34,527 bases of DNA from a virus. Taxonomy: Duplodnaviria > Heunggongvirae > Uroviricota > Caudoviricetes. Below, piece by piece: positions 8,597-9,010 of the stretch. How positions within the stretch are numbered: position 1 is the stretch's first letter; the number at the start of each line of letters is the position of its first letter. The notes beneath the pieces were generated by a model, which had not been told where the DNA came from, made no database searches, and saw only the letters and a program-made list of their open reading frames with translations. A program made the translations under genes and the position numbers. The stretch lies in IMG/VR virus record IMGVR_UViG_3300029702_000330; one strand, 5' to 3'.

Positions 8597-9010
8597 TGTT
8601 AGGTATTTTAGACGTTACTAGATTAAAAAGCATTAGTTCAGGAGTGAATTGACATTCTCATTTTTCATGGCACAGGGTAGATCTGGCGTGGTTGTCCGCT
8701 TTGTGCCAAAAGCTGTCATCGATACGAGCATTTTCCGAAAATTAATTCCAATTAAAACAAGTATCTACAGTTCAACATTATTGTCCATTAGCAAAAAAAA
8801 CATAAATTCAGGAGAATTTAGTGAGTAACAAGTTCAATTCACCTTTACAAAAATAATTCCATAAGATATTGATTTATAGTGTTTTATTTTGTGCATTTGA
8901 AGTATGGCGGGCGATGCTGTAGAAGAATATTTATTTTTATGACTTTTCAATTATTATGATACGTACGTGTGATGTAGGGCAGGTTTTGCCTAATCGTTAT
9001 ATCTCTATAA

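Follow-up and report, generated by a model that had tools for sequence, protein, structure and literature searches.

An AT-rich leader and its DUF262 gene in a palindrome-bounded cargo slot of a Qin/Rac-like lambdoid prophage of Escherichia coli

Introduction

Morons are thought to benefit the lysogen, and those of the lambdoid phages were reportedly described by Juhala et al. in 2000 (HK97 and HK022) and by Hendrix and colleagues. Here we analyse an AT-rich interval (coordinates 8597–9010) immediately upstream of a DUF262 gene in a 34,527 bp stretch of viral DNA (IMG/VR record IMGVR_UViG_3300029702_000330; the whole stretch is referred to as the window), which is a Qin/Rac-like lambdoid prophage of Escherichia coli. 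The closest described kinds are the lambdoid morons together with the prophage defence hotspots. The interval consists of a phage-backbone spacer and a decayed palindrome followed by the leader of a moron-like, defence-candidate cassette, and we consider it probable, general picture included, that the leader gives a weak promoter for expression in the lysogen. The AT-rich stretch itself is an ordinary feature, and the hairpin-bounded hotspot in which it lies is the more interesting by-product.

As with a moron, the cassette is an extra gene between genes whose equivalents in related phages are neighbours or enclose other DNA, as seen from homology breakpoints with four sister phages and from 21 alternative cargos. 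Its base composition also deviates (GC 0.30 in the leader and 0.439 in the gene, versus 0.50 and 0.455 in the flanks), and it has non-coding DNA ahead of the gene and a terminator-like hairpin behind it. The defining promoter of a moron is represented here by moderate candidate sites only, and whereas a moron occupies an arbitrary gene boundary, this cassette sits in a fixed slot between two related palindromes with alternating cargos.

Defence hotspots have been described in P2 and P4 prophages (Rousset et al. 2022, PMC9122126; Vassallo et al. 2022, PMC9519451), and the slot resembles them in having a fixed site, conserved flanks, and unrelated known or candidate defence systems as contents. 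It differs from them in phage family (Qin/Rac-like lambdoid) and in position (from the DUF977 gene to hokD/sok). Vassallo et al. (PMC9519451) name lambdoid prophage locations in general terms only, and no description of the slot and its palindromes was found in the literature searched, which is not proof of their being undescribed.

A further likeness is to the PeSL cassettes of T4-type phages, in which conserved stem-loop motifs border variable and dispensable genes within a hyperplastic region (Arbiol et al. 2010, PMC2839356; Comeau et al. 2014, PMC4122927). The same cargo on different backbones, and cassettes in tandem, are found here as expected if recombination at such motifs shuffles modules. 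A PeSL consists of a strong sigma-70 promoter and a transcription-terminating stem-loop (PMC2839356); in contrast, the palindromes here have no adjacent strong plus-strand promoter and no T-run after either stem, and there are two of them rather than the dozens per genome of PeSLs. An integron cassette with attC core sites, RYYYAAC … GTTRRRY, was considered and rejected: among the junction sequences inspected GTTAAGC alone agrees with GTTRRRY, cargos are found in both orientations, no integrase is annotated beside the slot, and at most two cassettes are in tandem.

Limits and composition of the cassette

Four sister prophages have both flanks in common with the window and carry other cargos; homology to them ends at 8713–8724 and restarts at 10946–10952 in all variants, and therefore 8597–8717 corresponds to phage backbone and 8718–10950 (2.2 kb) to cargo. 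The backbone part begins with a conserved spacer 3′ of the DUF977/LygF gene (8597–8693; GC ~0.40–0.44), which is 97% identical in prophages with other cargos (L003 and L004) and ~88% identical in Tritos and Evi; among copies of the backbone part there is one variable site per 121 bp. It ends with the left boundary palindrome of the slot (8694–8717, plus strand), with the consensus GTCCGCTTT-GTGCCA-AAAGCGGAC and an inner arm that is degraded here to AAAGCTGTC.

The cargo part starts with the AT-rich, non-coding leader of the DUF262 cassette (8718–9031, plus strand; 314 bp, GC ~0.30), followed by the DUF262 gene (9032–10825, plus strand) and a cargo-specific 3′ spacer (10826–10950), at the end of which backbone homology resumes. 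The right boundary palindrome (10951–10974, plus strand) has the consensus GTCCGCTTT-TCGCTC-AAAGCGGAC, with the inner arm degraded to TTCCGCTCC. Within the 3′ spacer there is a terminator-like GC hairpin after the cargo gene (10866–10881, plus strand; GCCCGCATATGCGGGC then TTATTTACTC), with a 6-bp all-GC stem and a fold of −16.1 kcal/mol (z −1.9), although its T-tract is interrupted and its strength uncertain. The cassette is composed of the leader, the gene and this hairpin, and is located between the DUF977 gene and hokD/sok.

The first-pass annotation of the window, made from the sequence alone, had associated the whole interval with horizontally acquired cargo. This is strongly supported by the comparisons for 8718–9031, which is absent from the sister prophages, occurs only with the DUF262 gene, and sits in a slot with at least 21 alternating cargos; it does not apply to 8597–8717, which is conserved backbone. 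The DUF262 gene most likely starts at 9032 rather than 9011, because the NCBI annotation pipeline PGAP uses 9032 in other genomes and 9014 is where nucleotide homology to the closest foreign relative sets in, and the intergenic region is therefore taken as 8597–9031. A predicted ribosome-binding sequence (AGGA, 9018–9021) lies inside the homology that begins at 9014.

The same annotation described the interval as far more AT-rich than the surrounding genes, and windowed GC calculation bears this out: GC is 0.326 at 8597–9010, compared to 0.502 in the upstream DUF977 gene, 0.439 in the DUF262 gene, and 0.481 in the whole 34.5-kb window. Just 1.6% of all 414-bp segments in the window are as low, and both of the A/T-rich strings quoted by the annotation are present, at 8788–8810 and 8926–8958. 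Composition within the interval is uneven, with GC 0.40–0.44 at 8600–8750 and an AT-rich core at ~8700–8960 (GC 0.25–0.31 in 100-bp segments), and the low GC carries on into the initial ~370 bp of the DUF262 coding sequence (GC 0.38). The interval is equalled or surpassed in AT-richness elsewhere in the window, by blocks at ~14.8–16.1 kb and 17.5–20 kb, and within the second of these the GC of 17.6–18.0 kb and 18.8–19.8 kb is as low or lower, with a minimum of 0.297 at 17661. These other blocks contain cspA-type thermoregulator leaders (15014–15406 and 17915–18300; Rfam RF01766, 159 and 109 bits) that adjoin cold-shock-like cargo genes.

A hairpin-bounded cargo slot

The borders of the slot lie inside the two related 24-bp palindromes, GTCCGCTTT-N6-AAAGCGGAC, in all variants, and these two are the only matches in the 34.5 kb, with none expected. 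Both inner arms are decayed in this window and intact in other variants. The left palindrome folds here at −10.5 kcal/mol (z +0.6), compared to −28.9 kcal/mol (z −4.85) for the intact copy in L003, and the right palindrome at −7.7 kcal/mol (z +0.9), compared to −16.6 kcal/mol (z −2.5).

To survey the slot, viral contigs were searched with the right-hand backbone motif, which returned more than 120 contigs, 90 of them with both palindromes (the slot loci are L003–L006, L050–L052 and L058–L174). The 90 contigs enclose 21 unrelated cargo types of 0.8–5.4 kb, nearly all below the GC content of E. coli, and the cargo start (…AAGCGGAC) and cargo end (GTCCGCT…) recur in 19–21 of the 21 types, with the inner arms of the palindromes conserved in as many. 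Known defence cargos include PD-T7-1 (E = 7e-157), PD-T7-3 (E = 4e-168), PDC-S39/DUF4209, PDC-S06, AbiH, and Hp1/Hp2, and there is also a ThsA-like SIR2 gene adjoining an adenosine deaminase. Further cargos encode NUDIX and HAD hydrolases, QueH, and a regulator with an acetyltransferase.

Cargo and backbone combine in various ways. The same cargo is found on left backbones that are up to 15% divergent, one backbone allele is associated with at least nine cargos, and in four cargo types the gene to the left of the palindrome is wholly different. The slot is thus, by these comparisons, a defence hotspot, with module exchange at or close to the palindromes. No empty slot (shorter than ~1 kb and without cargo) was found among 5,426 E. 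coli genomes. Two loci show palindromes within the cargo: L141 has two tandem cassettes, with a right-type palindrome and then a left-type palindrome 18 nt on (cargo positions 1160–1225), and L069 has an internal left-type palindrome between its two genes (cargo position 1224).

Relative to the phage operon, five cargo types are antisense throughout and a further four mixed, and these must therefore carry promoters of their own, such that slot cassettes are, by this reasoning, commonly autonomous transcription units. When carried on a plasmid under their native promoters, PD-T7-1 and PD-T7-3 do give protection (Vassallo et al. 2022, PMC9519451). In the 14 forward-first cassette types the first open reading frame (ORF) lies 40 to 304 nt from the palindrome, the distance being longest in the DUF262 cassette, whose initial 300 bp, at GC 0.29, rank third among the 21 in AT-richness (median 0.37). 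A long AT-rich leader is thus particular to the DUF262 cassette, yet not unique.

Occurrence, content and variation of the leader

The leader is present in 16 of the 5,426 complete E. coli genomes, always immediately 5′ of the DUF262 gene. A plasmid search found no plasmid that carries it, one metagenome scan gave no match, and the four viral contigs with the leader contain the same prophage with the same slot arrangement. Three of the 16 E. coli copies of the cassette are disrupted or altered. In L002 (strain WS3294A) an IS66-family element, ISEc22, is inserted in the A-run of the leader at the equivalent of window coordinates 8794–8805, with the gene intact, and this is the sole incomplete leader among the 16. 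In L046 (strain 2017.09.02CC) ISVsa5 (IS4 family) is inserted at the 5′ end of the DUF262 gene, just downstream of window coordinate 9040, and in L001 (strain 13P477T) a frameshift splits the gene.

Nucleotide homology to foreign loci is limited to 9014–10821 (83% in the best case). At 31 foreign loci the upstream DNA is unrelated to the leader, and upstream AT-richness is not a trait of the family. Compared by blastn and tblastn with the slot's 20 other cassette types and the proteins they encode, neither the leader nor the 3′ spacer shows any similarity.

No protein-coding gene is annotated by PGAP in the leader in the six records inspected. The region contains three small ORFs, at 8649–8828 (plus strand, 59 codons), 8834–8950 (minus strand, 38 codons), and 8879–8959 (plus strand, 26 codons), of which the two scanned, those of 59 and 38 codons, gave nothing in Pfam. 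An AGGAG lies four nt ahead of the TTG start of the 59-codon ORF, but this ORF spans the backbone/cargo breakpoint at 8718, and its sequence is therefore not conservable among slot variants. Rfam gives no match in the region, either at gathering thresholds for the whole window or at E ≤ 1 for 8400–9300. The segment 8720–9031 folds worse than shuffled sequences on both strands (z ~ +1.5), with the backbone part at z 0.0. No ToxI-like tandem repeats were found in the leader, and the short direct and inverted repeats form two-copy families only, compatible with chance. One of them is a 20-nt direct repeat, 85% identical between 8625–8644 in the backbone (AAAAAGCATTAGTTCAGGAG) and 8795–8814 in the leader (AAAAAACATAAATTCAGGAG); each copy ends in a Shine-Dalgarno-like AGGAG, which may be chance (probability ~0.1, a rough estimate).

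Polymorphism was compared among five aligned copies of the cassette. There are six variable sites in the 314 bp of the leader (1.9 per 100 bp), including an indel, and three in the 125 bp of the 3′ spacer (2.4 per 100 bp), compared to three in the 1,794 bp of the coding sequence (0.17 per 100 bp). Because there is no support for an ORF or an RNA and the leader is ~11-fold more polymorphic than the coding sequence, we conclude that the leader is non-coding and weakly constrained. Four changes are private to the cassette copy in this window (8720, 8886, 8907 and 10909; one of them a 1-nt deletion in a T-run), and all are in the leader or the 3′ spacer, with none in the coding sequence.

Promoters, read-through and the role of the leader

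The mechanism that seems most likely is a weak promoter in the leader for expression in the lysogen. The leader would supply one or more weak, AT-rich sigma-70 promoters, a 5′ untranslated region and the ribosome-binding sequence noted above, and with these promoters transcription of the DUF262 gene would be possible in the lysogen, under repression of the early-right operon. In the lytic cycle, transcripts reading through from that operon would probably add to expression of the gene.

Candidate promoters were scored with a position weight matrix (PWM), a heuristic based on hexamer frequencies from the literature. Four forward sites in the region score 7.7–8.3 bits, in the top 0.05% of window positions. 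The first (8781–8808, plus strand; TTGTCC-16-TAAATT; 8.27 bits, 99.975th percentile of the window) is moderate, and it is the one split by ISEc22 in strain WS3294A. The second (8897–8925, plus strand; TTGAAG-17-TAGAAG; 7.83 bits) is also moderate, with a −10 that ends 107 nt before the start codon, and both of its hexamers are invariant among the aligned copies. The third (8930–8957, plus strand; TTTATT-16-TATTAT; 7.68 bits), again moderate, has a −10 that ends 75 nt before the start codon. In 8500–9500, sites beyond the 99.9th percentile occur about 2–10 times more densely than in most 500-bp bins, and only the other AT-rich blocks match this; such a density is typical of AT-rich acquired DNA and compatible with one or more weak promoters. 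The proposal of the first-pass annotation that such tracts act as cargo promoters is thus plausible in so far as promoter prediction finds moderate sigma-70-like forward sites, although it finds no strong one.

Several observations weigh against this reading. In a consensus scan of 8597–9031 every forward site fell short of 9 of 12 matches, the sole hit in the region being on the minus strand, and the best forward site by PWM (8.3 bits) is well below the early-right promoter (10.9 bits, at 6418) and the sok promoter (11.6 bits, at 11250). The best site of the region is itself antisense (TTCAAA-17-TATAAA, with the −35 from 8901; 9.2 bits), and a dense array of moderate promoter-like sites is expected in any AT-rich DNA. 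There is no plus-strand intrinsic terminator between the early-right promoter at 6418 and the gene at 9032, and the left palindrome, a possible brake on read-through, is decayed here. The leader is not kept 5′ of the gene's closest relatives, in which homology begins at 9014, and its ~11-fold excess of polymorphism over the coding sequence (Fisher p = 6e-4) fits a weakly constrained spacer equally well as a promoter. Finally, 8597–9031 contains no match to the high-affinity H-NS motif (tCGwTwAATT) with one mismatch or fewer, and four with two mismatches.

The main rival explanation, possible but on the whole unlikely, is that the leader is a passive spacer derived from the donor or the insertion event and without a promoter, such that the DUF262 gene is transcribed only by early-right read-through, in lytic growth and not in the lysogen. 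Read-through during lytic growth is itself likely, since no intrinsic terminator intervenes; the gene is co-oriented with the early-right operon, and co-transcription with the phage operon, which had been named as the alternative to a promoter of its own, is possible. The lack of a strong forward promoter, the unrelated DNA 5′ of the closest relatives, the polymorphism of the leader, and the ISEc22 insertion tolerated at 8794–8805 in a strain with an intact gene all point the same way. However, a prophage would gain little from a defence gene not expressed in its lysogen, other cargos of the slot are antisense and must be autonomous, and the cassette has a terminator-like hairpin of its own. 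Moreover, forward cargos capable of using read-through keep leaders of 40–100 nt versus the ~315 nt here, and the strong constraint on the coding sequence indicates that the gene is in use.

The 3′ spacer also contains a strong promoter-like site on the minus strand (10917–10945; TAGACA-17-TCTAAT), which with a PWM score of 10.5 is among the top six of the window, and which points antisense, towards the palindromic terminator hairpin. An antisense small RNA from the site at 10945 was considered and rejected, as its fold is not significant (z −0.23).

H-NS and other explanations

A more speculative addition to the weak-promoter reading is that the leader and the first ~370 bp of the gene form a block of ~680 bp (~8718–9400; GC 0.30–0.38, versus ~0.51 in the host) with a composition favouring H-NS binding, and low or conditional expression is therefore plausible. 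The high-affinity motif helps H-NS binding but is not obligatory, and across the window it is not above chance (127 matches versus 111 ± 10 in shuffled sequences). The block is AT-rich and horizontally acquired, like the acquired DNA known to be silenced by H-NS (Navarre et al. 2006; Lucchini et al. 2006, PMC1550270), but it lacks the high-affinity motif at one mismatch or fewer, and it is short beside the larger AT-rich blocks of the prophage at 14.8–16.1 kb and 17.5–20 kb. A 2026 preprint deals with H-NS and immunity loci, and the DUF262 gene is likewise a candidate immunity gene; nothing links the preprint to this locus. H-NS silencing, with low or conditional expression of the DUF262 gene as the first-pass annotation suggested, is a plausible possibility.

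A bolder explanation, which we think quite improbable, gives the palindromes an active role. Beyond serving as conserved linkers for homologous recombination, they would be structure-specific recombination sites at which Qin/Rac-like lambdoid prophages swap, stack, and possibly excise cassettes, and the leader would be the promoter-bearing front of a mobile 'defence cassette', with the companion possibility that H-NS silences the gene until an H-NS inhibitor of an infecting phage releases it. This would be a lambdoid counterpart of the mini-circles of T4-type PeSLs or of integron attC exchange.

A further reading, that a gene or a previous cassette of the slot decayed and left the leader behind, is very unlikely. 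The unusual decay of both boundary palindromes in the DUF262 cassette and the length of its leader, the longest among forward cassettes, would fit with this, and decaying DNA drifts towards AT. However, blastn and tblastn show no similarity of the leader or the 3′ spacer to the remaining 20 cassette types or the proteins they encode, searches of E. coli genomes, plasmids, viral contigs and metagenome contigs turned up no other copy, and there is no long interrupted reading frame.

Least probable of all is an unannotated element, either a small protein or an RNA, small or antisense, acting as a regulator of the DUF262 gene, for although the region has three small ORFs, one with an AGGAG, and its best promoter-like site is on the minus strand, the 59-codon ORF differs in phages with other cargos, Pfam (for the ORFs of 59 and 38 codons), PGAP (in six genomes) and Rfam (at E = 1) offer no candidate, both strands fold poorly, no repeats of note are present, and polymorphism is high and includes an indel.

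The DUF262 gene and its prophage setting

The DUF262 gene encodes a 597-residue protein with an N-terminal GmrSD_N domain (residues 23–172; Pfam PF03235, E = 1.9e-22), and PADLOC matches cover the N-terminus only (NsnA, 9e-28; PD-T4-2_A, 5e-18). The ~425 C-terminal residues (173–597) have no sequence match in Pfam, NCBIfam, PADLOC or PDB, including none to the C-terminal DUF1524 (His-Me finger) nuclease domain of GmrSD-type enzymes. The protein thus has the N-terminal DUF262/GmrSD_N domain in common with the GmrSD-type type IV restriction enzymes but differs from them in the lack of a sequence match to DUF1524.

Its closest protein relatives are in Betaproteobacteria (86% and 84% amino acid identity) and Alphaproteobacteria (66–79%), and because of this distribution the gene has, by sequence comparison, clearly moved between phyla. 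The scattered relatives in these two groups (77–86% identity) indicate that the long-range transfer was recent.

The left part of the prophage contains, in order, the DicF RNA, a cI-like repressor, Cro, YdaT, an O-like replication protein, and DUF977/LygF (8195–8596), with DicF on the minus strand in the left operon (4775–4826). To the right of the interval are the DUF262 gene, sok/hokD, rem, DUF968, RusA, a Q-like antiterminator, and tRNAs. The sok antitoxin RNA (11285–11459; 115 bits) is directly right of the slot, and the strong promoter-like site at 11250 accompanies it.

Implications

An AT-rich leader in front of an acquired prophage gene is as the literature on morons and xenogeneic DNA leads one to expect, and matters little in itself. 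With the limits of the cassette fixed to the base (8718–10950) and the gene start corrected to 9032, a clean reporter or knock-out can be designed, and the right-hand palindrome handle TCGCTCAAAGCGGACTAGAAGG can be used to harvest further candidate defence genes from E. coli prophages. The presence of the DUF262 gene in a defence hotspot raises the prior that its uncharacterised protein is an anti-phage gene product. If the palindromes were active recombination sites, this would explain how such hotspots are refilled.

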